IMG/VR virus record: IMGVR_UViG_3300032295_003161
From: an uncultured virus (IMG/VR IMGVR_UViG_3300032295_003161)
Lineage: Duplodnaviria; Heunggongvirae; Uroviricota; Caudoviricetes
Reading direction: 5' to 3' (one strand)
DNA: 20,000 nucleotides
Notes under the pieces: generated by a model
Seen by the model: the letters and a program-made list of their open reading frames with translations, nothing else
Database searches by the model: none
What the model was told of the DNA's origin: nothing
Part shown: positions 1-18,877 of the stretch, in pieces
Layout: every line of letters begins with the position of its first letter
How positions within the stretch are numbered: the stretch's first letter is position 1
Made by a program: the position numbers and the translations under genes

Positions 1-1760
1 AATCTAAAAGAAATATGAAATGTTGTTGTATTAGCATATTTTATAGCTGTTTTGGTATATTGCAATAATTTAAAAACATCTACTAAATAAGGAGTACCTG
101 CATCTTGTTTTTTAGGTATTACGTTTTCATATTGTGCATATTTTTCATTAATCAAAAGCGATTCATTTGAATTTGATTTTTTTACCTTATTTATATCATA
201 AACACCATTATACTTTTCGTTTGGATAAGGCAAAGTAATTAAAATATGTGCATTAGTAGCAGTAATACCATTTTCGTCAAAATTAACACCAGTTAAATTT
301 AATCTTTCGCTATCTGGATTTTTATCTAAAAATGGCTCAAGAATACTACCTAATCCCTTATCAATAGGATTATTAATAAAAGGAACTTTTTTTGTATTTG
401 TTATGTTTTTAAAAATACTTGGCACTTTGCTCCATTCGTAAACTTGAGGACTTAATGTTTGACCATAATTTTTATTTGTTGTTAAATTCATTTTTTCGTA
501 GTTTTCTTCAACGTATTTTTTTGCTTTTTCAACCGAATCAAAATATTCTGTAATAACATCTGAATAGGTACGATTAAAACTTTCTCCATGAATAGAACTT
601 AATACAATTACAGTTAAAGATACTTCTCCACGTTTGTTTTTAAGTATTTCGTAACTATATTTTTCGTCTATTTTTTTATAAATTTCTTTACCATCCCTAT
701 ATCTACTAACTTTCCAACCATCTTCAGTAGTTGTTACAACGCTTGGTTGTTCGATTGAACTTTTTATTCCTCCTCCACCAGCATACAATCCACTTTCAGC
801 ACCTACCATACCATCGGCTTCCATATCTAAAACATCATTGTAGTTGTTCAAATCCCTTGAAGGGTGGTCGCCTTTTTTAGATTCTTCAACTAAATTAAGT
901 TGACCGCCATTATCAAATATATTTGAATTTTGCTCTTTGTAATCAAACACATAAGCCATTACTTCTTTTTCGTCTTTTAGAATAGCATTAGTAATCCTAT
1001 GGTGTCCATCTAAAACGTAATATTTATCATTTAGCTTGAACAAAATAGGGTATGATTCAACATCTTTTGTAGATTCAATATTAGGAATAGTTACATTTCT
1101 TTGAGAAGGAACTATGCTTTTTAAATCAACCATTTCAGTTGGCAATTTAGTTTCATTTTCTAAATAAGGGTCGGCAGTAGAAACAACACTCGCTGGTAAA
1201 ACCTCTACTTGATTAAAGAAAATTTTATTAGTAGGCACTTTTGGGAACGTACTTTTATTTTCTCTTTTTAAATCAGCAATTTTTTGTTGGTATTCGTTTA
1301 AGCTACCACCATTTTTGTATTCTTCATCGCAACCGCAACTATTCATAGATTGCATAATTTCATAATCAGTCATAGTCTTGCCACCGTAATTGTATGAACT
1401 ACCATTGAAGTATAATTCACTTGGCACATCGCCACCTTGCTCAAAAGAAACTCCACCGCCAGAAACATTGATTTTAGACAATATTTCTCTATTGGTAAGC
1501 ATTTCCCCTTGAAATTCTTTTTTAGTTTGGTCTGCAACCGCTGGAGCTGTAATAATAACTTCACTTGATTGAACTTCAATAGGTTGCCCAGTAGATTTAT
1601 TAATCCCTTTTATACCTCCCTCTTTATGTAATTTACCAACAAAATAACCGCCAACAGTAGCATCATCGTAAATCATAGTTTGACCTTCTCTTTTGCCAAC
1701 TAAAACTCCGCCTGCTGGTGTTTTTTTTGCTTCATCTAATGTTATTGTGTCTTTTTTCAT
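1..1760 (-). CDS. Large multidomain (polyvalent-type) phage protein, 3'-truncated by the window edge (>586 aa): virion-protein-like N-terminal domain, ParB/Srx-like domain, unknown domain, beta-clamp-like domain
   Basis: Manual translation from ATG 1760 (MKKDTITLDEAKKTPAGG...) has no stop before position 1, which probably explains its absence from the track. Motifs: GGYFVGKLHKEGGI..EVQSSEVII..LSKINVSGGGVSFEQGG; PILFKLNDKYYVLDGHHR (ParB-like, DGHHR at 996-1010); RLNLTGVNFDENGITATNAHIL...NEKYAQYENVIP (resembles clamp motifs R..L.GV.F..ATDGHRL and YPDY..VIP). Confidence 0.85.
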   Translation of the reverse strand, partial: MKKDTITLDEAKKTPAGGVLVGKREGQTMIYDDATVGGYFVGKLHKEGGIKGINKSTGQPIEVQSSEVIITAPAVADQTKKEFQGEMLTNREILSKINVSGGGVSFEQGGDVPSELYFNGSSYNYGGKTMTDYEIMQSMNSCGCDEEYKNGGSLNEYQQKIADLKRENKSTFPKVPTNKIFFNQVEVLPASVVSTADPYLENETKLPTEMVDLKSIVPSQRNVTIPNIESTKDVESYPILFKLNDKYYVLDGHHRITNAILKDEKEVMAYVFDYKEQNSNIFDNGGQLNLVEESKKGDHPSRDLNNYNDVLDMEADGMVGAESGLYAGGGGIKSSIEQPSVVTTTEDGWKVSRYRDGKEIYKKIDEKYSYEILKNKRGEVSLTVIVLSSIHGESFNRTYSDVITEYFDSVEKAKKYVEENYEKMNLTTNKNYGQTLSPQVYEWSKVPSIFKNITNTKKVPFINNPIDKGLGSILEPFLDKNPDSERLNLTGVNFDENGITATNAHILITLPYPNEKYNGVYDINKVKKSNSNESLLINEKYAQYENVIPKKQDAGTPYLVDVFKLLQYTKTAIKYANTTTFHISFR

Positions 1761-1761
1761 A

Positions 1762-2397
1762 TTATCCTATTAAAAACTTTAAATAGTCTGGCGTACCGCT
1801 ATCGGCAATACCGCCTTTCTCAAATCTTATGTCGTTGTTTTTTTTATCAAATGTAGTGTTAGTGCCATCCGCAAGTTTTATTTGGTTAGAATTATTAACA
1901 ACGTATAAATTATCTTTTCTTGTTCCAAATATTATTATGCCATCAAGCATTTCATCAATAAATAATTCTCTAATGTAATCTCCTCTGTTAATATCATAAT
2001 TATCAGCAGGTGCATAATAATCACTATTTGTTCTTCTAATTAAAGGATTTTTTATATTCAAAAAACATTCGTAAACAAAACCTTTGCTTTTAAGTTCAGA
2101 ATGTAATTTAGCATAGTTTTCAGCAGATTGTTTTCTTTGAGTAAAGAAAAAACCTCCTTGCTCACTTTGAATATAATTTAAACCTATTTTTTTTCTATCA
2201 AAAACATTAAAATAGCTCCCTGTTCCATGATAAACCACCATTGGCTCTCCATTTTCATCAACAACCTTACTTGCGTTTTCTGGGTCGTTTTCCCAATCCC
2301 CAAACCATTTCTTAAATTCTGGTGTGCGGACTAACTTATATTGTTCAGTAGTTAAATTGCTTGGCTTACCATTAGGTGCTAATAACTCTTTTTTCAT
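1762..2397 (-). CDS. ADP-ribosyltransferase-fold protein (ART-PolyVal-like), array copy 3 in transcription order
   Basis: SKVVDENGEPMVVYHGT, GGFFFT...AENY, FLNIKNP, DGIII, NQIK...DIRF match ART-PolyVal motifs. The position of the catalytic Glu is occupied by Leu. Confidence 0.8.
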   Translation of the reverse strand: MKKELLAPNGKPSNLTTEQYKLVRTPEFKKWFGDWENDPENASKVVDENGEPMVVYHGTGSYFNVFDRKKIGLNYIQSEQGGFFFTQRKQSAENYAKLHSELKSKGFVYECFLNIKNPLIRRTNSDYYAPADNYDINRGDYIRELFIDEMLDGIIIFGTRKDNLYVVNNSNQIKLADGTNTTFDKKNNDIRFEKGGIADSGTPDYLKFLIG

Positions 2398-2398
2398 A

Positions 2399-2953
2399 TT
2401 ATCCTATTAAAAACTTTAAATAGTCTGGCGTACCGCTATCAGAAATACCGCCTTTATCAAATCTTATATCGTTGTTGTTTTTGTCAAATGTAGTATTAGT
2501 ACCATCGGCAAGTTTTATTTGGTTTGGATTATATACATTTATATTAAAAAATGGTTTTTTTTTCTGTAAAACATCATCCCACTCTCCATATTTATAAATA
2601 TAAGCATCAAAACCTTTTTCATCATAATCATCTCTAATTTTATCTGTTATTTTTCTTGCATTTATAAAATAGAGTTTACTTTTGCCATAATTATTTGCTA
2701 AATTTTTATTATCGGTAAACCAATGACCTACTCTTATATCATTAAATTTGTTTTTAAAAATATTAAACCTTTTATTTGTTCCATGATAAACCACTAACGG
2801 CTCTCCATTTTCATCAACAACCTTACTTGCATTAGCAGGGTCGTTTTCCCAATCCCCAAACCACTTTTTAAATTCTGGTGTGCGGACTAACTTGTATTGT
2901 TCAGCAGTTAAGTTGCTTGGCTTACCATTAGGTGCTAATAACTCTTTTTTCAT
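2399..2953 (-). CDS. ADP-ribosyltransferase-fold protein (ART-PolyVal-like), array copy 2
   Basis: VVYHGT, GHWFTDNKNLANNY, GFDAYI, NPNQIK. The position of the catalytic Glu is occupied by Asn. Confidence 0.78.
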   Translation of the reverse strand: MKKELLAPNGKPSNLTAEQYKLVRTPEFKKWFGDWENDPANASKVVDENGEPLVVYHGTNKRFNIFKNKFNDIRVGHWFTDNKNLANNYGKSKLYFINARKITDKIRDDYDEKGFDAYIYKYGEWDDVLQKKKPFFNINVYNPNQIKLADGTNTTFDKNNNDIRFDKGGISDSGTPDYLKFLIG

Positions 2954-2954
2954 T

Positions 2955-3530
2955 TTATCCTATTAAAAATTTTAAATAGTCTGGCGTACCGCTATCAGAA
3001 ATACCGCCTTTATCAAATCTTATATCGTTGTTGTTTTTATCAAATGTAGTGTTAGTACCATCGGCAAGTTTTATTTGGTTTGCTTGAAAAACTACAATTT
3101 CATTTTGAAGAATAACTCCATCATAACCATCTTTTTGTAATTTTTTTGTTAAGGTGGATTTATTTTTATTGTAATATTTTTCAGACCATTCTTTTAATGA
3201 ATTTTCATCTAAATAAAATGGCTCTTTAATAAAACAATATAAATTTAAAACAATATTCCCGTAATTAGATGCTGTTTTTTCATTTTGAGTAAAATAAAAT
3301 CCCTCCCCATAACTTCCTCTGTTTGATTTTTCAAACTTGTTAAATGTTTTAAATGTTCCATGATAAACCACTAACGGCTCTCCATTTTCATCAACAACCT
3401 TACTTGCATTAGCAGGGTCGTTTTCCCAATCCCCAAACCATTTTTTAAATTCTGGTGTGCGAACTAATTTATATTGTTCAGCAGTTAAATTGCTTGGCTT
3501 ACCATTAGGTGCTAATAACTCTTTTTTCAT
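2955..3530 (-). CDS. ADP-ribosyltransferase (ART-PolyVal-like), array copy 1
   Basis: VVYHGT, YGEGFYFT...ASNYG, GYDGVILQNEIVVF give a complete H-Y-E-type motif set. Confidence 0.85.
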   Translation of the reverse strand: MKKELLAPNGKPSNLTAEQYKLVRTPEFKKWFGDWENDPANASKVVDENGEPLVVYHGTFKTFNKFEKSNRGSYGEGFYFTQNEKTASNYGNIVLNLYCFIKEPFYLDENSLKEWSEKYYNKNKSTLTKKLQKDGYDGVILQNEIVVFQANQIKLADGTNTTFDKNNNDIRFDKGGISDSGTPDYLKFLIG

Positions 3531-3547
3531 ACTTCTATAATAATTTT

Positions 3548-3555
3548 CAAATGTA
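3548..3555 (-). promoter_or_regulatory. Bacteroidota-type -7 promoter box (TACATTTG) upstream of the ART array
   Basis: Matches TAnnTTTG and lies in the intergenic region 17 nt upstream of ATG 3530. Confidence 0.65.
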
Positions 3556-3640
3556 ATAAATTCTATTGTAACTTAAAAATCATATTATTTATAATAAATA
3601 ACATAATTTATTCAAAAGTAGGCATTTAATATTTTTTTAC

Positions 3641-3817: not shown

Positions 3818-3851
3818 AAAAAAAACCCACCAATTCGGTGGGTATTTTTTT
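3818..3851. terminator. Bidirectional intrinsic terminator
   Basis: Stem ACCCACC/GGTGGGT (3825-3843) with loop AATTC, an A-tract on the left and a T-tract on the right, between convergent ORFs. Confidence 0.85.
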
Positions 3852-4356
3852 ATAAGTGTTTCCAAAATTTTCCTCTTATTATTCCTAAAACATTAGTTCT
3901 ACTTATTCCATACTTTTTTGACAAAGACATTCTGGTTTCAGAAAAACCAATTTTTCTTATTTCCAAAACTTGTTCTTCAGTAAGTTTGCATTTATGGTGC
4001 TTAATTCCTTTTTGGTCTTTTAATCCAGTTTCTATTGCATGGCTCATATTCTCGCTATTTGTATGCCATTCTAAATTTTCAACTCTATTATCGGTTTTTA
4101 TTCCGTTTTTATGATTTACAGTTGCCTTATTGTTTGGATTATCAATAAAAGCGATTGCTACTAATCTATGTTCCGTAAAAAAATACATTTTACCTTCTTT
4201 AGACAAAACTCTTTTAACGTAACCATACCTATCTATATTTCTTCCAATAAGTCTTTCCTCAAAAACCCTTTCGCTAATCAAACGCTTAACATTTCCTAAA
4301 TTAGATACTTGGTATAATCCTTCAAAACCAGCAATATCTTTCCAAATTTCTTCCAT
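3850..4356 (-). CDS. NUMOD4-HNH endonuclease with C-terminal HTH
   Basis: EEIWKDIAGFEGLYQVSNLGNVK (NUMOD4); HRLVAIAFI...VNHKNGIKTDNRVENLEW (HNH); KLTEEQVLEIR...LSKKYGISR (HTH). Confidence 0.93.
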   Translation of the reverse strand: MEEIWKDIAGFEGLYQVSNLGNVKRLISERVFEERLIGRNIDRYGYVKRVLSKEGKMYFFTEHRLVAIAFIDNPNNKATVNHKNGIKTDNRVENLEWHTNSENMSHAIETGLKDQKGIKHHKCKLTEEQVLEIRKIGFSETRMSLSKKYGISRTNVLGIIRGKFWKHL

Positions 4357-4932: not shown

Positions 4933-6207
4933 TTATACAAGCTTTAAAATTATATTCTCAAACTTCTTGGTAATATCGTTCCATTTCCATTTTACAACGT
5001 GGTTGTATGCGTTTTCTACAATAGTGCTTACTTGACCTTTCACTTCATCTTCTTCGTTTTGTAGGTTGTAAACAATACCACATACTTGAGCCACTTCTTC
5101 TGGATTAGAAATAAATCTAATTTTTTCAAAGTCATTTACAAATACTGCTCTTTGGATAAACTTGAATAAAAACGCATTGTTACCATTATCAGTAATTTCT
5201 TGAATAGAAGTATGTCTTGGAGCAATTACCAGTTTTTTACAAGCCATTGCTTCAACTATTGATAATCCCCAACCTTCAGCCGTAGTGGTTGTAATAAAAC
5301 AATCAAAAGTATTGTAGATTTTATTTAATTCGGATTCGGAAATACCATTATTTTCATTAAAATCTTTTGGGAAGAAAATATCTTTACCAACATCTAAACC
5401 TAACCTTTCAGATAATCTATAACAATCAATTCCCATTCGGTCTTGAGGATTACAATGGATATATAAAACGGCATTAGCTTGACTTGTATGCTTGAACATA
5501 GCAAAACCAATCATAAGAGTTCCTAAATCCTTTCTTGCGGAATTACGGTTTACGCTACCAAACACAAAAACATCACTTTTGCCAAAAATAAGTTCTTTGG
5601 TTCTATTGTTTTCAAAAGAATTGTCTATTGGGTGGAACACTTCGGTATCTATTCCATGAGGAATGATTTTAATCTTTTTCCACTTGGATTCAGATATAAG
5701 CGGTTTTAAAACTGCTTTAGCATATTCAGTATAAGTAATAACTTCATCAAACAAGTCTAATACAGCACAATCGCTTGGTCTTGGCTCACTATCTATTGGA
5801 GTGTATAGGATATACTTCGTTTTCTTTTTATTGGCTTTTGTACGCTCTTTTTTAACGTTTGCCAAATGCTCGGTCATTGAGTTTAAAACTTCAATATCAT
5901 TTAATGCGAAAAACACATCAAAATCGTGTGAATAAAGTATTCTTAAAAGTTCTAATCTGGCGTAGCCATCTTTTTTTTCATCGACTGCCAAACAAGGAAT
6001 AACCATTACGTTTTCTTTGTAATTGTATGGCTTTTCAGTCAAGTCATTAATAGCTAATATCGTAATATTGAAGTTTTTGTTTTTGCTCCAATTCTCTATT
6101 AACTTTGTTGATACGTTACCGAATCCAGTTGTGCAATTAAAATCCCCATAAAATAGGATATTAACTGGTTGGTCTTTTTTAGTTTTCTTGGTGTGTACTA
6201 CTTTCAT
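4933..6207 (-). CDS. Glycosyltransferase, GT-B fold (GT4-like)
   Basis: TGFGNVS, IIPHGIDTEVFHP, VNRNSARKD, DCFITTTTAEGWGLSIVEAMAC (EX7E motif). Confidence 0.92.
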   Translation of the reverse strand: MKVVHTKKTKKDQPVNILFYGDFNCTTGFGNVSTKLIENWSKNKNFNITILAINDLTEKPYNYKENVMVIPCLAVDEKKDGYARLELLRILYSHDFDVFFALNDIEVLNSMTEHLANVKKERTKANKKKTKYILYTPIDSEPRPSDCAVLDLFDEVITYTEYAKAVLKPLISESKWKKIKIIPHGIDTEVFHPIDNSFENNRTKELIFGKSDVFVFGSVNRNSARKDLGTLMIGFAMFKHTSQANAVLYIHCNPQDRMGIDCYRLSERLGLDVGKDIFFPKDFNENNGISESELNKIYNTFDCFITTTTAEGWGLSIVEAMACKKLVIAPRHTSIQEITDNGNNAFLFKFIQRAVFVNDFEKIRFISNPEEVAQVCGIVYNLQNEEDEVKGQVSTIVENAYNHVVKWKWNDITKKFENIILKLV

Positions 6208-6457
6208 TTTTTGTTTTTTTTCCTACTATTAAAACTACTCTAATGTTTTCTTTTTTAAATTCTAATCTGTCTTTTTCATTTTTATACAAATATTCGTATT
6301 GTTCAAAACCATTCTCAATCAAATGCTTTTTTAATTTTAGCGAATAATTTCCTTGAAGTGCTGTATCATATTCAGTAAAGGTTAAAGAATAAAATAAATT
6401 CAAGTTTAAATTTAAACCTATCAAAAGACCTAATCTTTTTGAAATTTGATTTTCCAT
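6179..6457 (-). CDS. Hypothetical protein
   Basis: 92-aa ORF directly downstream of a repeated promoter/leader block. Confidence 0.7.
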   Translation of the reverse strand: MENQISKRLGLLIGLNLNLNLFYSLTFTEYDTALQGNYSLKLKKHLIENGFEQYEYLYKNEKDRLEFKKENIRVVLIVGKKTKNESSTHQEN

Positions 6458-6484
6458 TTTTTTTATATGTTTTAAAGTTCAAGT

Positions 6485-6515
6485 CAAAAGTATAAAATAT
6501 TATTTTAAATACAAA
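6485..6515 (-). promoter_or_regulatory. Consensus Bacteroidota promoter (TTTG-N19-TACTTTTG), repeated phage promoter copy 1
   Basis: -33 TTTG at 6512-6515, -7 box at 6485-6492; ~75-bp near-identical copy at 18409-18483. Confidence 0.85.
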
Positions 6516-6562
6516 ATATTATTTTAGATATATTTTATTATTTTAGATAATGTTTATTTTAT

Positions 6563-7084
6563 TTAATATTTACTGTTTATATTGTTTAGTCTTTTATACT
6601 CTAAATAACTTTCGTGTGCTTCTAATTCAGTATTAAAATATCCAGTATGAATCTTTTTTTTATTTATTTGTATTTGTCCTAACCATTTTTTATGCTTTTT
6701 ACAATAAGTTACACCAACATAAATACTGCTTTTATTTTTATTTAAAAACTTATGTATGTTATTTTCAGAATGTGAAACCCATTCTAAATTTTCAATTCTA
6801 TTGTCGTTTGGATTTGAGTTTATATGATTTATTTGAGGTTTATTATATGTGTTTTCAATAAAGTATTTAGCTATTATTCTATGAACTCTAAAAAGTTTGT
6901 CTTTTCCATTTATTTTCAAATTACATAAACAATAAAAATCTTTATCTAAATATTGTTTTATTATTTTATTTTCTAACTTAATTCTACCCATGTTACTAAA
7001 ATAGTAATCCAAGTCATATTCATTTGTTTTTACCCAAATTTCATTTTCTAAATCTTCAATAAAAGTGTTTTTGTAAATTTCCAT
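6563..7084 (-). CDS. NUMOD4-like HNH endonuclease with C-terminal AP2 domain
   Basis: EIW..YYFSNMGRIK; HRIIAKYFI..QINHINSNPNDNRIENLEW; SSIYVGVTY..KWLGQI..GYFNTELEAHESY (AP2). Start placed at ATG 7084 because the track's ATG 7099 lies within leader stem P2. Confidence 0.9.
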   Translation of the reverse strand: MEIYKNTFIEDLENEIWVKTNEYDLDYYFSNMGRIKLENKIIKQYLDKDFYCLCNLKINGKDKLFRVHRIIAKYFIENTYNKPQINHINSNPNDNRIENLEWVSHSENNIHKFLNKNKSSIYVGVTYCKKHKKWLGQIQINKKKIHTGYFNTELEAHESYLEYKRLNNINSKY

Positions 7085-7192
7085 AATAATAAAAAGCATC
7101 TAATTTCGTAAAATGGTGGATTTACTACTCTTAAATGCTTTTAAATTTATATTTTTATGATATACATTATTCCACCATAGATAATGTTATCA
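7085..7192 (-). ncRNA. Putative structured 5' leader RNA (two hairpins, 8-bp loop-loop pairing), copy B
   Basis: P1 UGAUA-ACAUUAU/AUAAUGU-UAUCA with loop AUGGUGGA (7171-7178); P2 AAAAGCAUUUAA/UUAGAUGCUUUU plus GUAAA/UUUAC with loop UCCACCAU (7113-7120). Confidence 0.72.
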
Positions 7193-7200
7193 CAAATGTA
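7193..7200 (-). promoter_or_regulatory. -7 promoter box TACATTTG ahead of leader B
   Basis: TAnnTTTG immediately 5' of P1. Confidence 0.7.
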
Positions 7201-7207
7201 ATAAAAA

Positions 7208-7834
7208 TTATTCAATTCCTTGCTCTCTATTGTCAGATAAACTCATAACGTGATAAGTTGGTGGGTGGTTAACTGCTTTAGCGTGTGTGCCAAACTTATT
7301 CATTGATTCTATTAGCCTCCAATCGTGGCTATAATCTGAATCATGCGTTGGCATTGTTTTTAAGAACTCGGTTCTAATAACTAATTCGCTATGACCAATC
7401 ATTCCATATTGAAGTTGAGCAACTCTGTTGGCTCGTCTTGGTGCTACATAACTATCAAAGTACATAAAATCGTAATTGGTGTTTTCAATAGCCGACAAAT
7501 AATTATCAAAATGGTTTGGTAGAATAATATCATCGTTGGCAAAAAAAGTAAAGTATTTACCTCTGGCAAGTTTTATGTTTTCATTAGTAATGAAGTAACC
7601 ATGACCGCCACGATTTTCTTTATTGTTTTTTATTATCAATTGGTTTCCTTTTGCGTTACAATCTTTTACAATATCAGCAAAGTAGTTGCTATCTACAAAA
7701 TCTTGCATTATAGGACAACCATCTCCAATTACAAGTGCTTCCCAATCGTTAGCTGTTTGGTTGGCAATACATTCAATTGCTCTTATAGTTCCTTTTCTTC
7801 TACCGAAGCAAGGCATTGAAACAGTTAATCTCAT
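7208..7834 (-). CDS. Glycosyltransferase family 2 (GT-A)
   Basis: LTVSMPCFGR, WEALVIGDG, ENRGG..NENIKLARGKYFTFFANDDII. Confidence 0.88.
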   Translation of the reverse strand: MRLTVSMPCFGRRKGTIRAIECIANQTANDWEALVIGDGCPIMQDFVDSNYFADIVKDCNAKGNQLIIKNNKENRGGHGYFITNENIKLARGKYFTFFANDDIILPNHFDNYLSAIENTNYDFMYFDSYVAPRRANRVAQLQYGMIGHSELVIRTEFLKTMPTHDSDYSHDWRLIESMNKFGTHAKAVNHPPTYHVMSLSDNREQGIE

Positions 7835-8097
7835 AGTTTTCTTATTTCTTTTTTAACTTTTTTAAAATATTCTTTTGTATCATATTCTTCAATTGGTTTA
7901 TTTGGAGAATATTTTATTATTTCATCAACTGAAATTAAAGCACATTTTTTTGCTACTTCCCAATCATCATATTCAAAAGAAGTACCATTAACTTCTGTTA
8001 AAACTTGACAAGTTAGTGGTAGTGGCATAAAAAACAAATCTACTAATTCATGTGCTTTTTCTTTTGGTGTTAATAATTCAAGTTTCCCTTTTTTCAT
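7831..8097 (-). CDS. Hypothetical phage protein (TPKEKA.EL...AK.CALI.VDEI type)
   Basis: 88-aa ORF with ATGA overlap into the GT2 gene. Confidence 0.75.
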   Translation of the reverse strand: MKKGKLELLTPKEKAHELVDLFFMPLPLTCQVLTEVNGTSFEYDDWEVAKKCALISVDEIIKYSPNKPIEEYDTKEYFKKVKKEIRKL

Positions 8098-8115
8098 AAC
8101 CCTTTTTCTTTTTTT

Positions 8116-8271
8116 TTATCCATTTCTTATTGATTTTAAACTATCATTTTTTCTATAAGGCATTACATCAAATGTAACACCTGATTCTGAATTATCTGTT
8201 CTGGTTTTATGAATAAGTTTGCCATTCATATAAATATAACATTCATTTCCTGATATTACAATGTGTGTCAT
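8116..8271 (-). CDS. 51-aa hypothetical protein (not in track)
   Basis: MTHIVISGNECYIYMNGKLIHKTRTDNSESGVTFDVMPYRKNDSLKSIRNG*; ATGA-coupled to the upstream ORF and fills the gap. Confidence 0.65.
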   Translation of the reverse strand: MTHIVISGNECYIYMNGKLIHKTRTDNSESGVTFDVMPYRKNDSLKSIRNG

Positions 8272-8480
8272 AGTCCTTTTTCCTTTTTGAAGATTTCTAA
8301 TAGTTCTTTTGACATTCTTTGTGTTATCTTAAATTGAGTAAATAGTCCATTTTTTAAACACCACTCCGCAAATTCAATAGCATAATCATCTGCTGTTTTT
8401 TCGCAATCAGTTAATAATGGTTCTTGCATACCACCAAATTCTTTTGGAACTAATGCGTTAAATTTTTCTTTTAGTGTCAT
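8268..8480 (-). CDS. Small paralogue family protein (MTL.EKF...AD.YAI.F..W...ELLEIFKKE)
   Basis: Shares motifs with 8616-8819, 8809-9081 and 19660-19881. Confidence 0.8.
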   Translation of the reverse strand: MTLKEKFNALVPKEFGGMQEPLLTDCEKTADDYAIEFAEWCLKNGLFTQFKITQRMSKELLEIFKKEKGL

Positions 8481-8619
8481 AGCTGTTTTTATTTTTTAAA
8501 TAATCTAATGTAGCTTTTTTTTCAGCCAACAAAAATTCAACTATAATTTTGTTGTCTTGATTTTCTATTAATGCATTATCAATTCTCATTAATTTTTCTA
8601 AAATTTCTTTTTTTGTCAT
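8458..8619 (-). CDS. 53-aa hypothetical protein (not in track)
   Basis: MTKKEILEKLMRIDNALIENQDNKIIVEFLLAEKKATLDYLKNKNSYDTKRKI*; ATGA-coupled to the upstream ORF. Confidence 0.6.
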   Translation of the reverse strand: MTKKEILEKLMRIDNALIENQDNKIIVEFLLAEKKATLDYLKNKNSYDTKRKI

Positions 8620-8819
8620 AGTTGTTTTTCCTTTTTGAATTTTTCTAACATTTCTCTTAATGTTTTTGTTTCATCTTTTTCAGTAAGTAGCCAAAAAGCA
8701 AACCCAATAGCATACTCATCTGCTAATTCTACTAACCGTTCTGCTGATTGATTTGTCAGTATAAAACTTTCTTGATATACAACAACTGGTTCTTCTTGGA
8801 ATTTTTCTTTAAGTGTCAT
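8616..8819 (-). CDS. Small paralogue family protein
   Basis: MTLKEKF...ADEYAIGFAFW...LEKFKKEKQL. Confidence 0.8.
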   Translation of the reverse strand: MTLKEKFQEEPVVVYQESFILTNQSAERLVELADEYAIGFAFWLLTEKDETKTLREMLEKFKKEKQL

Positions 8820-9081
8820 ATCCTTTTTCTTTTTTGAAGATTTGTAATAGTTCTTTATGCGTTTGACCTTTAGTGTATTTACTACTTGAATTTAACCAAT
8901 ACTCTTTTGCCATCCAGTCTGAAAACTGAATAGTAAATTCATCTCTCAATTCTTCGGTTTCTTCAATACCAACTAATATTCCTGCTTCAAATAATTCATC
9001 TTCGGTTTCTCTGCCATTTAGATTTTGCTTATTCAATAAAGAATACCATTCTACCTTTTCTTTAATTGTTTTTGGATTCAT
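8809..9081 (-). CDS. Small paralogue family protein (C-terminal half only, different N-terminus)
   Basis: DEFTIQFSDW...KELLQIFKKEKG. Confidence 0.75.
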   Translation of the reverse strand: MNPKTIKEKVEWYSLLNKQNLNGRETEDELFEAGILVGIEETEELRDEFTIQFSDWMAKEYWLNSSSKYTKGQTHKELLQIFKKEKGYDT

Positions 9082-9085
9082 AATT

Positions 9086-9160
9086 CTACTTTTTAATATA
9101 CCCTACTAATACAAATTTTCCGTAAACCCATTTGTAGTATGGGATTAAATCTTCTGTCAT
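9086..9160 (-). CDS. Possible 24-aa microprotein
   Basis: MTEDLIPYYKWVYGKFVLVGYIKK*; fills the gap between neighbouring genes with 4-nt spacing on each side. Confidence 0.4.
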   Translation of the reverse strand: MTEDLIPYYKWVYGKFVLVGYIKK

Positions 9161-9164
9161 TACT

Positions 9165-9881
9165 TTAGCTTTGTCTTCCATCGTAACTCTCTACCATTTT
9201 GTCAAATTCAGCACATATATCCAAAACCATTTCATAACTCCATTTTTGCTTCATATAATCGTTTTCTTTTATGTATTTAGCTGGATTACCTACATACGTT
9301 CCAAAACAATTTGGATTGATTTTTTTAGTAACTATTGCACCCATACCAATCATTGCATAAGAGCCTATTTTAGAGTACTGGTGGCAAATACTACCTAAAC
9401 CCATATTAACTCCTTTTCCAAGCAAAGAATGACCGCCAATTAGCACATTGCAACTAATAGTACAGCCATCGTTAATTTCGCAATCGTGTCCAACGTGAGA
9501 ACCTCTCAACATAGTGATATTATCTCCTAATTGTGTAGGCACATAACAACCTGCATTAACAGTTACATACTCTCTGAAAACATTATTATTACCAATGTTA
9601 GTTCCTTTGTTTTTCTTTCCAAAAAACTCTTTATGCTCTGGCTCGTTCCCTATTGAACAAAAAGGCTCAAATACATTATTGTTGCCAATAAATGTTTTTC
9701 CTTGAATTACCACATACGCACCGATTTTGTTACCCTTTCCAATTCTAACATTATTTCCAATTATAGCCGTTGGGTGTATATCGTTATCGTTTACAATTTG
9801 CAAAAACCTTTTTGATGGTTTTCTTCCTATTTCAGTAGTTGTGGTGTAATATTGTTTTTGAAATGGTGTTAAATCGTTCAT
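9165..9881 (-). CDS. LpxA-like left-handed beta-helix acyl/acetyltransferase
   Basis: Hexapeptide repeats IHPTAIIG...; LpxA-type motifs FREYVTVNAG, SHVGHDC, GGH, CHQY, GNPA; C-terminal helical region is short. Confidence 0.85.
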   Translation of the reverse strand: MNDLTPFQKQYYTTTTEIGRKPSKRFLQIVNDNDIHPTAIIGNNVRIGKGNKIGAYVVIQGKTFIGNNNVFEPFCSIGNEPEHKEFFGKKNKGTNIGNNNVFREYVTVNAGCYVPTQLGDNITMLRGSHVGHDCEINDGCTISCNVLIGGHSLLGKGVNMGLGSICHQYSKIGSYAMIGMGAIVTKKINPNCFGTYVGNPAKYIKENDYMKQKWSYEMVLDICAEFDKMVESYDGRQS

Positions 9882-9887
9882 GTCGCT

Positions 9888-9977
9888 TTATATTAAATGG
9901 ATTAATGTTACTATAAGTAAAATAAGCATCAGCCATGCAATTATTTCGTTTATAATATCCTGTTTGTTGTATTTCAT
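9888..9977 (-). CDS. 29-aa single-TM microprotein (not in track)
   Basis: MKYNKQDIINEIIAWLMLILLIVTLIHLI*; fills the intergenic gap on the coding strand. Confidence 0.55.
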   Translation of the reverse strand: MKYNKQDIINEIIAWLMLILLIVTLIHLI

Positions 9978-9980
9978 TAT

Positions 9981-10553
9981 TTATGAATATTTGTTAATTA
10001 TATTGTTTTCTAACTCAAATTGTTTTCTTGCTTTATATGCTTCTTCTTCAGTTTCAAAAAAACCTATCCTTATTTTTTTTGAATTATGACAAATATAAGA
10101 GATAAACCTACCTTCTTTATTAAGACAAACACCAACATATTTACTGGTTTTGGTTTTGTTTTTAGACATGTGAGATTGGTTTTCCCCTCTGTTAACCCAT
10201 TCTAAATTATCAAACCTATTGTTTGATTTGTCAGAATCTATATGGTTTATTTCTGTTTTATTTTCAATTGGCTCTAAAAAACATTCTGCAACAGCTCTAT
10301 GTAAACTTTTTCTTTTAAACTTATCAAAAACCCTTAAAAAAACTGAATTATAATTATTTTTATAATGTTTATTTATTGATAATATTTTAGGTTTAAAAGT
10401 CATTATTCTTCCATTGGATTTATGAATAACTCTATGTAAAGATTTTACTCTCCCCATATTAGAAACTTGATAATATCCTTCAAATTCTAAAATATCTTTC
10501 CAAATTTCTCCTTCTAAATCTTGTAGCGAATGATTTTCGTTGTTTTTTTGCAT
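9981..10553 (-). CDS. NUMOD4-HNH-AP2 endonuclease
   Basis: EIWKDILEFEGYYQVSNMGRVKS; HRAVAECFL..EINHIDSDKSNNRFDNLEW; TSKYVGV..IGFFETEEEAYKAR. Confidence 0.93.
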   Translation of the reverse strand: MQKNNENHSLQDLEGEIWKDILEFEGYYQVSNMGRVKSLHRVIHKSNGRIMTFKPKILSINKHYKNNYNSVFLRVFDKFKRKSLHRAVAECFLEPIENKTEINHIDSDKSNNRFDNLEWVNRGENQSHMSKNKTKTSKYVGVCLNKEGRFISYICHNSKKIRIGFFETEEEAYKARKQFELENNIINKYS

Positions 10554-10662
10554 AATTTTATAAAAAAGTAAAGCCTTTACATATCCAAACGCTCACTACT
10601 TCGTTTTTCAATGCAAAGGCAAATATTTTTAAGTTACTAAATGTAGTGAGGTAACTGATACA
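10554..10662 (-). ncRNA. Putative structured 5' leader RNA (two hairpins, 8-bp loop-loop pairing), copy C
   Basis: P1 AGUUAC/GUAACU with loop CUCACUAC (10643-10650); P2 GCCUUUGCAU/AUGUAAAGGC plus AACG/CGUU with loop GUAGUGAG (10592-10599). Homologous to copy A with compensatory changes. Confidence 0.78.
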
Positions 10663-10670
10663 CAAATATA
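10663..10670 (-). promoter_or_regulatory. -7 promoter box TATATTTG ahead of leader C
   Basis: TAnnTTTG at the same offset from P1 as in copy A. Confidence 0.7.
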
Positions 10671-10680
10671 TAACATTTTT

Positions 10681-11319
10681 TTATTTATTAAATGGTTTTG
10701 TAAATTTTTCTTCATTAGGTAATCCACCCCACATTTCAATATAGTTTTGTCTATATTTCATAAAATTACTATTCAAAGATGGGTCTTTCGCTATGGTCAT
10801 TGAATTTCTATATACTACTGGATTCAAAAAAGAGGTGTTAAGTCGCTCCATATTTAACAATCTCATTCGGTAGCAATAATCGTTATCATTGTAGTAATTT
10901 GGAAAATACTCTTGATTAAATTCGCCTATTTTTTTATATCCATCTACACTCAAAATAAACGAACACCAATTCATTAATGAATTTATAAAAGGCATTTCTA
11001 TATTTTGTTTTATCAGTAATTTAATTTCGTGTTCTGTACGCCCTAAATAAACATCATCATTAAGAACCAATACATGAGTTGCTCCTATTTTTTCTGAATA
11101 ATCAATAAGCATATTCCAACTGCCAGAAACATTAAGGTTTTCTTGCGGTCTATAAATCATAAAGTTTTCTTCACGAGTTATAATGTCTTGATTACCATTA
11201 TCGCAAATAGCAATATGCGTATCTTTAAAATCTTCAAAGTATTTAGCCAACGCATCGTTAAGAAGGTCGGCTCTATTGATAGTAGGAATTGCTACTACTA
11301 ATTTAATTTCTTTATCCAT
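10681..11319 (-). CDS. Glycosyltransferase family 2 (GT-A)
   Basis: VAIPTINR, ICDNG, NLNVSGSWN, VLVLNDDV, IGEFNQEYFPNYYNDNDYCYR. Confidence 0.9.
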   Translation of the reverse strand: MDKEIKLVVAIPTINRADLLNDALAKYFEDFKDTHIAICDNGNQDIITREENFMIYRPQENLNVSGSWNMLIDYSEKIGATHVLVLNDDVYLGRTEHEIKLLIKQNIEMPFINSLMNWCSFILSVDGYKKIGEFNQEYFPNYYNDNDYCYRMRLLNMERLNTSFLNPVVYRNSMTIAKDPSLNSNFMKYRQNYIEMWGGLPNEEKFTKPFNK

Positions 11320-12053: not shown

Positions 12054-12075
12054 AATATAATACAATTTATTATTT

Positions 12076-12083
12076 CAAATATA
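12076..12083 (-). promoter_or_regulatory. -7 promoter box TATATTTG with the same AATATTTTA upstream context as the repeated promoters
   Basis: Intergenic; partial match to the 6485, 14372 and 18444 promoters. Confidence 0.5.
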
Positions 12084-12094
12084 AAATATTTTAT

Positions 12095-12928
12095 TTAATA
12101 ATCAATCATTTGGTATGTTAATTTATCAACAATAGGTTGAATATCAACTTCTTTTAGCCAAAGATTAACAACATATTCCCTTGCGTATTTTTTTACTTTA
12201 TCTTCTTCTTCAAAGTTTAAATCAGACAATGTTTTATAAGAATGGTGTTTTATGGTTGCTTCCATATATCGTTTCTTTTTTTCATCTGAAAACCTTTTTT
12301 TACCATATTCTAAAGCATCGTTTTGAACGTGTTTAGGTATTGCAACTAATTTACTATTTCTTATAAATCCATAAACAATATCCCCAGCATCAATATAGTT
12401 TTCTTTTTTGGAGGTTTCTTTAGCGTACAATAGTAGCTTTTTGAAATTAGCCAACCTTTCGTCTTTATTAATTGGTTTTGGTTTTGTGCTTTCTATTTTT
12501 TGCAATTCTTCCCTTACCTTGAACAAAACCTTGAATTTATAATCTTGATAAGCGTGAAGTACTTTAGAGCAATACATTATACTCAAACTACCATACGCTT
12601 CCGCATCAGTTTCTAATCTACCATTTACCAAAAGAGTTATCAGTTCGTTTAAATCAACATCGTTGAAGTTTGGAAAACTCTCTCTAATGTAATTAGCAAT
12701 ACTGTTTAAATCAAGTGCTTCTGGTTGCTTTGCTCCAATGTACTTTGCCCATTTAGTAATCAAGGCGTTCATTAGTAACAAGTCTTTTTCAGTAGAGTAT
12801 TCTTTAAACTTTTTGTTAGATAAACTTGCGTTGTAAATACCAACTTGGCTTTGACTTACATTTTTTATTTGATTTGGATTAACCAGTTGTATTCCAACCG
12901 AGTTCTGTTGCTTTACTAACTTGTTCAT
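12095..12928 (-). CDS. Hypothetical protein adjacent to the replication initiator
   Basis: 277-aa ORF overlapping the initiator's 3' end; no recognised motif. Confidence 0.75.
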   Translation of the reverse strand: MNKLVKQQNSVGIQLVNPNQIKNVSQSQVGIYNASLSNKKFKEYSTEKDLLLMNALITKWAKYIGAKQPEALDLNSIANYIRESFPNFNDVDLNELITLLVNGRLETDAEAYGSLSIMYCSKVLHAYQDYKFKVLFKVREELQKIESTKPKPINKDERLANFKKLLLYAKETSKKENYIDAGDIVYGFIRNSKLVAIPKHVQNDALEYGKKRFSDEKKKRYMEATIKHHSYKTLSDLNFEEEDKVKKYAREYVVNLWLKEVDIQPIVDKLTYQMIDY

Positions 12929-14011: not shown

Positions 14012-14348
14012 TTTTCATGTTTTTTTTGTTTTTCAACATAAAAACTTTTTTAGCATAATATTGTCTTTCTTTTCTGGACATTTCTTTTGTTTCCAAAGTT
14101 CCATTAGCAACAAGCCATTTTTTTAATTCAGAAATTGTTAGTCTTGGGTCAATTACAAGTGGTTTTGGTCTTTTAGTGCAAACCTCTAACTTGTTAGAAA
14201 TTTCTTCGTGAATAACTTTGATTTCTTTTACTGAATTTTCAATTGATTGAAGTTGTTTAACTTCATCTTGAATGGTAACTTGTGTTTGTTCTACGTTTGG
14301 CGTTTCCTTACAAAACAGCCAATTAATAAATCTAAAAATTATTTTCAT
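13959..14348 (-). CDS. Hypothetical protein
   Basis: First gene after repeated promoter copy 2. Confidence 0.7.
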   Translation of the reverse strand: MKIIFRFINWLFCKETPNVEQTQVTIQDEVKQLQSIENSVKEIKVIHEEISNKLEVCTKRPKPLVIDPRLTISELKKWLVANGTLETKEMSRKERQYYAKKVFMLKNKKNMKIVFDKKAKSYKYYPNGL

Positions 14349-14371
14349 TTTTTTTGTTTTAGTTAATCCTT

Positions 14372-14402
14372 CAAAAGTATAAAATATTATATTAAATACA
14401 AA
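14372..14402 (-). promoter_or_regulatory. Repeated phage promoter copy 2 (TTTG-N19-TACTTTTG)
   Basis: caaaagtataaaatattatattaaatacaaaatattat differs from copies 1 and 3 at one position. Confidence 0.85.
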
Positions 14403-14424
14403 ATATTATATTTAATAAAACGTA

Positions 14425-15387
14425 TTATTTTAAAGATTTTAAAGTTGCTTCGATATTTTTTCTCAATTGGTCTGGAATAATAAAGTTTAATGCGGTTTCT
14501 AAAGTTGTTTTCATATTCGTATGTTCCGCTTTTAAAATATCTATTTCAGATTGATAAGACTTCACATTAGAAGATGCAATGGCTTCAAATTCTAAAGATT
14601 TTTTAGTTAATACCGTAACCTTTTTTTCTGTCTTTGCAACTTGTTTCTGCAACTCGGCATTTTGCTTTGCCAACAACTCTTTTTGATTGTCATCTTGTTG
14701 TTTACGGTCTTTTAATCTATTGAATATTTCTTGGAATTGTTCTTCAGTAGTATCAGAATAAATTACATCATCTTCGTTTACAATAAAAAAAGAATAGGGT
14801 GCTAATTTCATTTTTCTTTCAGCATACAACTTGGTTCTTTTTTCTGTTTCTTCTTGCTCCAGTCTTATTTTTTCTTGCTCTTTTTGATAATTTTCAAGCG
14901 ACATTTTTCCACCATTTAAAATAGTATTAAAAGCAACCTCCGACATAGTACTTAAATCAAAAGCATCTAAATCTAAAACTTGTAAATATGGTTTTAGTAA
15001 CTCTAATCGGTCTGCTTTAAGTTTTGCCTTTCTCAAATGCTCTTTTGTTTCAGCATACTTTTCTTGAATTTCTAAATGGTCTTCAGCTGGTTCTATAACA
15101 GCGAATAATCTTTTGGCAAGGCTATCAATAAATCTACCTTCTAACAAAGACTGCTCTTTAAGGCGTTTGCGTGTCTTTTCAATCTCAACTCGCTTTGCTT
15201 TTAAAAGAAGTCTGCCTTCTCTGGCTTGTTGCATTAAATCTACTTGACTTTCATCGCTAACGACAATATCGTATGCTTTTTTATTCCATTCGTTTGCTAT
15301 ATCCTCGTATTCTTTGAATTTAGCATCAATTGATAATACGACCTCTCTTGGTAATCCGTTTTCCATTAGTTCTTGTTCTTGGTTCAT
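14425..15387 (-). CDS. Coiled-coil phage protein
   Basis: 320 aa, E/K/Q-rich and helical (AREGRLLLKAKRVEIEKTRKRLKE). Confidence 0.75.
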   Translation of the reverse strand: MNQEQELMENGLPREVVLSIDAKFKEYEDIANEWNKKAYDIVVSDESQVDLMQQAREGRLLLKAKRVEIEKTRKRLKEQSLLEGRFIDSLAKRLFAVIEPAEDHLEIQEKYAETKEHLRKAKLKADRLELLKPYLQVLDLDAFDLSTMSEVAFNTILNGGKMSLENYQKEQEKIRLEQEETEKRTKLYAERKMKLAPYSFFIVNEDDVIYSDTTEEQFQEIFNRLKDRKQQDDNQKELLAKQNAELQKQVAKTEKKVTVLTKKSLEFEAIASSNVKSYQSEIDILKAEHTNMKTTLETALNFIIPDQLRKNIEATLKSLK

Positions 15388-18206: not shown

Positions 18207-18415
18207 TATGTCAACGCTATTATTTGTCCGTTAATCCATTGACTATAATTTTTTGGATTTCCATATTTTTCTAAATTATCTAAATTCCTTTTATAGTAAT
18301 CTTTATAACCTTCTTGACAATCTATAACAAAATTATCAAAAGACCCTTTTTCCCCACAAGCGATAAATAAACATTTTAAATCTTCGTTATCAATTTTAAA
18401 GATAATTTTTTCCAT
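18206..18415 (-). CDS. Hypothetical protein
   Basis: First gene after repeated promoter copy 3. Confidence 0.7.
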   Translation of the reverse strand: MEKIIFKIDNEDLKCLFIACGEKGSFDNFVIDCQEGYKDYYKRNLDNLEKYGNPKNYSQWINGQIIALT

Positions 18416-18443
18416 TTTTTTTTATATGTTTTAAAGTTCAAGT

Positions 18444-18474
18444 CAAAAGTATAAAATATTATTTTAAATACAAA
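18444..18474 (-). promoter_or_regulatory. Repeated phage promoter copy 3 (TTTG-N19-TACTTTTG)
   Basis: Identical to 6485-6515. Confidence 0.85.
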
Positions 18475-18496
18475 ATATTATTTATAATAATTTATA

Positions 18497-18877
18497 TTAT
18501 TTATAAAACTCTATCAACCAACCTTGTGCAATTATAATTCTTAACATTTCAGATTCGTCAAATAGTTGAATTAAAACTTCATCTCCAGAAGAAACATCTA
18601 CTGCTTTAATTAATTGTGTTTTATCTCCATCAGTTGTTTCAACTTTTTCAACACTACCATAAGGCTTGTATTTAATTGTTTTACCATCTTGGTAATACAA
18701 ACATATATATCCAGTATTCTTTTCATTAAAAACAACCAATAGGTCTGTTTTTTGTAATTCCATAATAACACCATCTTCTTTTGTGTTATATGACTTATAT
18801 GTTTTTGTAAAAGTTTCTTTTTGAGCATAGTTTGTAAACGATACAAACAACAATGCAATTAATAATAGTTTTTTCAT
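18497..18877 (-). CDS. Secreted/periplasmic protein with Sec signal peptide
   Basis: MKKLLLIALLFVSFTNYA|Q: predicted SPI cleavage before Gln, as is typical of Bacteroidota. Confidence 0.8.
   Translation of the reverse strand: MKKLLLIALLFVSFTNYAQKETFTKTYKSYNTKEDGVIMELQKTDLLVVFNEKNTGYICLYYQDGKTIKYKPYGSVEKVETTDGDKTQLIKAVDVSSGDEVLIQLFDESEMLRIIIAQGWLIEFYK

Follow-up and report, generated by a model that had tools for sequence, protein, structure and literature searches.

Evidence for the exchange of ADP-ribosyltransferase cores between constant coding frames in a variable slot of an uncultured virus

Three neighbouring genes of an uncultured virus have nearly identical ends around dissimilar centres, which raises the question of how such genes arise. 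The window analyzed here is a stretch of 20,000 nucleotides and is part of a 67-kb contig. On its minus strand, as described in the original prediction, three open reading frames lie head to tail and 1 nt apart: copy A (2955..3530, 191 aa), copy B (2399..2953, 184 aa) and copy C (1762..2397, 211 aa). All of them share a 59-aa N-terminus ending at YHGT and a 41-aa C-terminus starting at NQIK, hereafter the N-frame and the C-frame, and the cores between these frames measure 91 aa in A (3081..3353), 84 aa in B (2525..2776) and 111 aa in C (1888..2220). The N-frame of A, with the strand of the catalytic histidine, spans positions 3354..3530, and the C-frame of C runs from NQIK to the stop codon (1762..1887). 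The remaining frames form two junction repeats on the same strand, each composed of a C-frame, 1 nt and the N-frame of the next gene, which connect A to B (repeat 1, 2777..3080) and B to C (repeat 2, 2221..2524). The two repeats are 94.7% identical and differ at 16 of 304 nt. The 5' blocks had been estimated to be about 93-97% identical in DNA with mostly synonymous changes, and we measured 97.2, 93.8 and 93.2% for the three copy pairs (5/0, 6/3 and 7/3 synonymous/non-synonymous codon differences). The 3' frames gave 97.6, 93.7 and 92.9% (3/0, 4/3 and 5/3, respectively). No exact match between copies is longer than 87 nt. The identity of the three cores is 24-28% when counted over the alignment and 30-35% when counted over the shorter sequence.

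The junction repeat continues for 11 nt into the start of the downstream gene (1750-1760), which begins like the three genes of the array, so that the same 11-nt gene start is found at 1750..1760, 2387..2397, 2943..2953 and 3520..3530 (minus strand). This downstream gene (1..1760, minus strand) encodes several modules with Gly-Gly motifs and continues past the window edge. Upstream of the array, on the same strand, we found a conserved motif with TAnnTTTG (3548..3559) and an intrinsic-terminator-like hairpin at the end of the upstream genes (3825..3843). We take TAnnTTTG to be the Bacteroidota -7 promoter element; a scan for sigma-70 promoters stayed at chance level (13 matches, 13.0 expected). 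The motif, a relative labelled Flavobacterium and a match in a Sediminibacterium record together point to a Bacteroidota host. The window also holds three HNH-type genes (3850-4356, 6563-7099 and 9981-10553), the first confirmed as NUMOD4/HNH by profile and the others recognized by eye. HNH genes lie beside the corresponding site in five related contigs as well (L001, L003, L139, L142 and L143), and those flanking it could start recombination there. An AT-rich repeat that recurs at dispersed intergenic sites (6450-6543, 14337-14430, 18409-18502 and 12061-12101), about 94 nt long and with an internal period of 19 nt, is a probable promoter or operator, and a cluster of glycosyltransferases with one acyltransferase (4933-11319) possibly serves the glycosylation of the particle or of the host surface.

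A profile search confirmed that the genes encode ART-PolyVal domains. All three copies passed the gathering cut-off of PF18760 (31.2 bits), with scores of 89.6 bits for A (E 4e-25), 65.2 for B (E 1.4e-17) and 87.7 for C (E 1.6e-24). This domain (Tox-ART-HYD2 clade) is the one described by Iyer et al. (PMC5512222). The copies of the window are single-domain proteins, unlike the multi-domain polyvalent proteins, and the same cores occur elsewhere inside multi-module proteins. Copy A was modelled from a 55-row alignment and adopted a PARP-like fold (pLDDT 83), and PARPs and other ADP-ribosyltransferases (ARTs) filled the match lists of the fold searches. The top match was the cyanophage A4 ejection protein (Z 7.8, rmsd 2.6, 113 aligned residues, Foldseek E 5e-4), followed among PARPs by a best match with Z 6.9 and rmsd 4.5 over 112 residues. 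These Z-scores, all below 8, are middling yet agree with Pfam. A sequence search of the PDB with copy A returned nothing meaningful (one match, E 0.3). The region of the ejection protein that matches the model lies in PDB 9k3a chain B, and we found no mention of ADP-ribosyl or PARP in the accessible main text of the cyanophage A4 paper (PMC12002296).

The model of copy A places the strand of His57 in the N-frame, the strands of Tyr79, Asp137 and Glu144 in the core and the last strand in the C-frame. Model confidence is low for residues 173-191, which contain one short helix. Since three of these strands lie within it, the exchanged core holds most of the active site. The motif residues of copy A are H57, Y79, Y90, D137 and E144, to which we assign, by presumed analogy with PARP motifs, the roles of a full H-Y-E set. 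At the positions of Y79 and E144, copy B has W and N and copy C has F and L, so that both are without the PARP-type glutamate. Of the H-Y-D active-site pattern given by Iyer et al., judging from the motifs, the histidine and the aspartate of [YFL]D[GA] are present in all three copies and the strand-2 tyrosine only in A. Glutamate at the E144 position is found in 23 of the 81 related units described below. The active-site pattern of C is conserved among members of its subfamily from distant viruses and is therefore not the product of simple decay.

To what extent are frames and cores inherited together? A search with the N-frame returned 842 matches, of which the best 120, together with nine genes of the locus, gave 126 distinct sequences. 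We parsed 81 of these as full units and left out 45 as fragments or unparsed. The set is biased because selection was by N-frame likeness and the source database is clustered at 90%; this raises frame identity artificially and leaves fewer close pairs. Among the 81 units (from the best 120 of the 842 matches plus the locus genes) we counted 57 core families at 50% identity, and tails of four classes: 37 KFLIG, 16 MFLGK-type, 7 IGGL and 5 WFGIKF. The 37 units with the tail of the window carry 24 core families, and the same frame is thus combined with many different cores, as had been anticipated. In the 55 pairs of units with at least 95% identical frames, the cores are either 10-30% alike (48 pairs) or at least 90% alike (7 pairs), with none between, and this gap is not a product of the N-frame-based choice. 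Moreover, of the 33 units that have a core sibling, 30 are closer in frame to some unit whose core is unrelated.

The cores of the window recur in other frames, in fusions and in giant proteins, in line with the proposed pool of homologues that includes large polyvalent proteins. Core A is found at 87, 91, 86 and 97% identity in P0033, P0076, P0121 and P0271, respectively; P0076 has the MFLGK tail and therefore belongs to another tail class, and P0121 and P0271 are fused to other modules. Only one of 123 candidates was a longer protein with core A. P0021 and P0273 contain an identical copy of core B within other frame variants, and its identity to a core in L001 is 52%. Core C shares 81 of 108 residues (75%) with a domain of a 1590-aa protein punctuated by Gly-Gly motifs, and 77 of 108 with a domain of another such protein of 1169 aa. 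The original prediction held simple duplication and drift to be inadequate, and the comparison agrees: the cores are 75-100% identical to cores elsewhere and 24-35% to their neighbours. A tree of 34 core sequences also rejected a single origin of the three (p-AU 7e-51). Because each core is nearer to cores elsewhere and one origin is rejected, the sequences indicate that the cores are old, separately conserved subfamilies and not drifted duplicates. For the expected incongruence of frame and core trees, the short frame tree, with 74 columns and no starred branch, did not yield significant tests (p-AU 0.098 for the core-A carriers as a clade, 0.27 for the core-C carriers).

We then compared the site of the array, hereafter the slot, which is flanked by a glycosyltransferase gene and, as its fixed right-hand neighbour, by the multi-module gene, with 13 other syntenic slots. 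The same three cores in fixed order, which would have spoken against exchange, were found in none of them. The copy number varies, as predicted, from no ART gene to at most three. L001 has two ART genes, one with the B-like core (52%) and one with another core. L091 carries two genes with cores F and G, L096 has core F alone, and L097, whose upstream flank is short, has core G alone within an N-frame that is a patchwork of the F and G frames of L091. The frames of these last three are 90-96% alike to those of the window, as close as C is to A and B. Zeta-toxin-like genes followed by ART genes or ART fusions fill the slots of L002, L003, L006 and L008. In G001, the slot holds a zeta-toxin-like kinase gene with a similar tail (G001:C2 14383-15321, L088) and no antitoxin gene beside it, and the adjacent glycosyltransferase gene is 97.6% identical to that of the window. 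Further downstream in G001, a gene that follows the cargo gene (L088:18053-18382) contains a tandem GGDEQ repeat of about 13 copies. L139 and L141-L143 have no ART gene. The upstream motif is present in filled and empty slots, and in L139 it directly abuts the start of the downstream gene, as a crossover at the 11-nt gene start common to these genes would predict. Stand-alone ART tandems occur independently in L001, L091 and L008. The position of a core in the slot does not predict its family. Two DNA pattern searches based on the tail matched only the contig of L001.

We next compared substitution distances. The frames of the window copies show synonymous distances of 0.17-0.36 and dN of 0-0.03, and between strains the synonymous distance is 0.16-0.26 for the same gene and 0.11-0.45 for a neighbouring gene. 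Since the synonymous distance is similar to that between strains and dN is near 0, the frames are not recent duplicates in cis and selection keeps them alike. On sequence grounds, the array looks like alleles from different strains placed side by side. Frame dN is also lower than that of the neighbouring gene (0.044 and 0.107, window compared with L001), and selection alone therefore explains part of the frame likeness. The core families are themselves under purifying selection in the three close pairs tested (dN/dS 0.04, 0.19 and 0.15), and core F differs between L091 and L096 with a dS of 0.07, compared to 0.26 for its frames. The synonymous distances of unrelated cores (0.5-1.2) are saturated in this AT-rich DNA and hence provide no dating.

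The sharp boundaries of the cores had been taken to speak against simple duplication and drift, and this part of the original prediction needs qualification. Identity does change in steps, from 0.90 to 0.34 and from 0.56 to 1.00 per 9-nt bin (14 pairs). However, these steps coincide with the most conserved motifs of the ART family, where homology stops. The same contrast is seen between tandem domains in unrelated giant proteins, where N-frames are 70-89% identical in amino acids in five of six pairs and cores 15-25%. Because the boundaries mark the end of family-wide conservation, they need no special mechanism. The contrast between frames and cores is a habit of the whole family, of which the window is the clearest stand-alone case.

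Could the array have evolved in place? One possibility is that the slot was once full of old ART paralogs, whose frames were homogenized by conversion in cis while lineages lost different genes. The frames of A and B are indeed protein-identical and closest to each other (97% DNA), frames within a genome are more alike (median 0.89/0.91, 10 pairs) than between genomes (0.79/0.76, 266 pairs), and two fused domains of L006 have frames 94/92% alike around cores of 18%. We nevertheless consider this account rather unlikely. Within one frame class we counted no fewer than 24 core families, but never more than three genes in a slot. Position does not predict the core, and the L091, L096 and L097 frames are as near to those of the window as C is to A and B. 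Core A is near-identical across classes, at 91% in a protein with the MFLGK tail and at 97% in a fusion. Gene conversion in cis is a probable contributor, but cannot be the source of the core diversity. Far less credible still is a duplication in cis after which selection altered the cores very rapidly. Core B and its relative in L001 may hint at it, with a dN of 0.37 compared to 0.04 in the frames, and their difference could reflect fast vertical change. Such a process, however, conflicts with the close matches of the window cores elsewhere and with the missing intermediates among the 55 close-frame pairs, and the rejection of one clade refutes it for A, B and C.

Two further accounts concern the machinery and the assembly. 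A dedicated, programmed cassette system, in which a site-specific recombinase or a retroelement switches cores at fixed points, would fit the one-step drop of identity at both core ends. It appears very improbable, however: tyrosine integrases (PF00589) and reverse transcriptases (PF00078), the two families searched for, were found in none of the five complete relatives, none of the 25 longest inverted repeats listed falls on a boundary, the frames are internally mosaic, and the core ends fall on the most conserved motifs of the family. The triple A-B-C might instead be a chimera assembled from strains with one or two genes each, given that proteins A and B are recorded on one contig and C on two, and that the 13 other slots lack this combination. 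We regard a chimera as improbable in view of exact repeats that do not exceed 87 nt, the 16 differences within 304 nt of the junction repeats and the independent stand-alone tandems of the other contigs. The conclusion that cores are exchanged would in any case survive a chimera, since it rests on other genomes too.

The explanation that we consider probable is that cores are swapped and stacked by ordinary RecT-type recombination between co-infecting viruses, with the frames, conserved by selection, acting as arms. Core exchange itself is well supported by the sequence comparisons, ordinary machinery is most likely, and the use of the frames as recombination arms is the route that we infer. 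The variable slot would head a cargo operon of a Bacteroidota-type virus, and in each gene a constant chassis would enclose one old ART core out of dozens. The chassis would be made of the N-frame, with the catalytic histidine strand, and the C-frame, with the last strand, the Gly-Gly motif and the short tail, while the cores would carry the other active-site strands and presumably the choice of target. Purifying selection would keep the frames alike, which would allow them to serve as homology arms when relatives infect the same cell. A double crossover would then replace a core, and a crossover at the shared 11-nt gene start, a candidate point for stacking or loss, and then between junction repeats would add or remove whole genes. 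Four of the five complete relatives searched encode RecT, and in G002 a gene for a RecE-like nuclease adjoins it. RecT, or Lambda Red, is the likely type of enzyme. According to the text accessible to us, this recombination works efficiently on sequences that diverge by 22%, far more than the frames do here (3-12%), and it is a general mechanism rather than a locus (PMC2327257).

Known systems offer partial parallels, here as described in the available parts of the sources. In the displacement of Rhs C-termini, a constant body and a variable effector are likewise decoupled by homologous recombination with a large pool, but with one arm, a whole terminal domain and silent orphan tips (PMC2935791). 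Here a single enzyme domain contains both arms, and all copies are complete open genes. The layout of the Rhs polymorphic toxins is absent, as the variable part is internal, the genes are spaced by 1 nt with no other gene between them and all are full reading frames. In T4-type PeSL shuffling, conserved repeats are crossover points for the gain, loss and replacement of genes, but these arms are non-coding regulatory elements (PMC2839356), whereas the arms considered here are coding parts of an enzyme fold. Conserved motifs also flank exchangeable specificity segments in the gp38 adhesin mosaics; gp38, however, is a single-copy receptor-binding protein (PMC3157838) and the present genes encode enzymes. 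T4 Alt is an ART carried in the particle and injected with the DNA, but it belongs to the R-S-E clade and is a single large protein without core exchange (PMC5512222). By this analysis, the locus would resemble Rhs tip displacement or PeSL shuffling in the way it works, with the difference that both arms are coding and lie within a single enzyme domain. Iyer et al. report a multi-copy case with 12 ART-PolyVal copies in one Pseudomonas prophage protein, while the window has separate short genes with a common tail; in the part of that paper available to us we found no account of exchange within the catalytic domain (PMC5512222). Our literature search, which left most subscription journals aside, found no published account of this core exchange or of this virus family.

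What do these enzymes do for the virus? We propose that they are effectors borne by the particle, a reading suggested by three observations: they are the first genes of an operon of cargo-like proteins punctuated by Gly-Gly motifs, they share their tail with unrelated genes of the slot, and the model of copy A matches an ejection protein. It also follows the proposal of Iyer et al. (PMC5512222; PMC9503650), who, in the accessible text, acknowledge solo polyvalent domains and suggest a host-modifying role on entry (PMC5512222). Packed in the particle, the proteins would probably act early in infection, by ADP-ribosylating molecules of the host or by consuming NAD+. In the literature searched, the two papers that mention the Pfam family deal with a different family, and we found no target for ART-PolyVal. 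The 15-aa tail, which ends in PDYLKFLIG and follows an FxKGG module motif (2955..3017, 2399..2461 and 1762..1824, minus strand), is a candidate packaging or membrane tag. Similar tails also end slot genes that encode no ART, for instance the zeta-toxin-like ones, and C-terminal tails are specific to lineages on otherwise different cargo proteins (P0001-P0120; L002, L003, L006 and L008). The motif [FYM]xxGG marks module joints in the downstream gene of the window (1-1760) and in the cargo block of G002, which has 19 occurrences in 3314 aa (five ORFs), compared to six in 16444 aa (97 ORFs) elsewhere in this genome. The structural region of G002 also encodes a membrane-anchored protein of H-box/NC type (L130:9708-10220), with matches to Peptidase_C97 (E 9e-5) and LRAT (E 0.01) that are both under the cut-off, and an HExxH protein (L131:1170-1955). 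Both are candidates for a maturation protease. As the former could equally be a lipid enzyme, we claim no cleavage at Gly-Gly.

The type of virus was assessed from complete relatives rather than from the contig of the window. In G002, whose flanking gene is 83% identical to that of the window, the ATPase is of HerA/FtsK type (DUF87 HerA E 2e-5, above the cut-off), and among its Atlas neighbours at 0.99, Zot/DUF87 is present in 13-20% of the members. A sequence search of the PDB with this ATPase returned only weak ClpB matches. One G002 ATPase matches a PHROG named terminase large subunit (1.7e-7), but resembles HerA/Zot. The two terminase/portal families searched (PF03237 and PF04860) are absent from all five complete relatives, and neither a portal nor an HK97 capsid match was found among 62 ORFs of G002 and 60 of G003. 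Some lysozyme-like and adhesin-like ORFs match PHROGs filed under tail. A capsid candidate of 233 aa is conserved in 37 viral contigs, and its model (pLDDT 61) is a beta sandwich with jelly-rolls as best matches (Z no higher than 6.7); the Atlas search with it returned only scores below 0.9. Membrane-like segments occur in 12 of 53 ORFs of the structural region of G002 and in none of the 38 others, and inverted terminal repeats in two of 22 records of this virus family. Taken together, these sequence features make the relatives (G002, G003, G006, G020 and G025) look like tailless, membrane-containing viruses of the HerA/FtsK class, which is a lead of moderate strength. In the portion of Iyer et al. 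available to us, phages with polyvalent proteins are assigned to the terminase-portal class, without an inner membrane (PMC5512222), and the relatives described here would differ from this rule. We found no such virus group in the accessible text of Yutin et al. (PMC5894146).

Among the protein-modifying domains of phage cargo carried in the particle, ART-PolyVal is described as the most common (PMC5512222). The locus provides dozens of natural, short variants, each with a single domain and all on the same constant chassis, and thus permits a core-by-core comparison of activity and target. Coding frames that act as recombination arms would provide a concrete route by which polyvalent proteins renew their arsenal. 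The relatives also point to a possibly undescribed virus family that would break the stated rule on the carriers of polyvalent proteins. As a tentative extension, which we consider possible but not probable, this would be an undescribed Bacteroidota virus family of 60-100 kb, tailless and membrane-containing, with an effector-display slot in which a tag-loaded chassis receives swapped and stacked ART active sites, each directed against a different host defence or NAD+ pathway. If so, the slot would represent an exchange of specificity inside an enzyme domain and a case of polyvalent cargo outside the portal phages.
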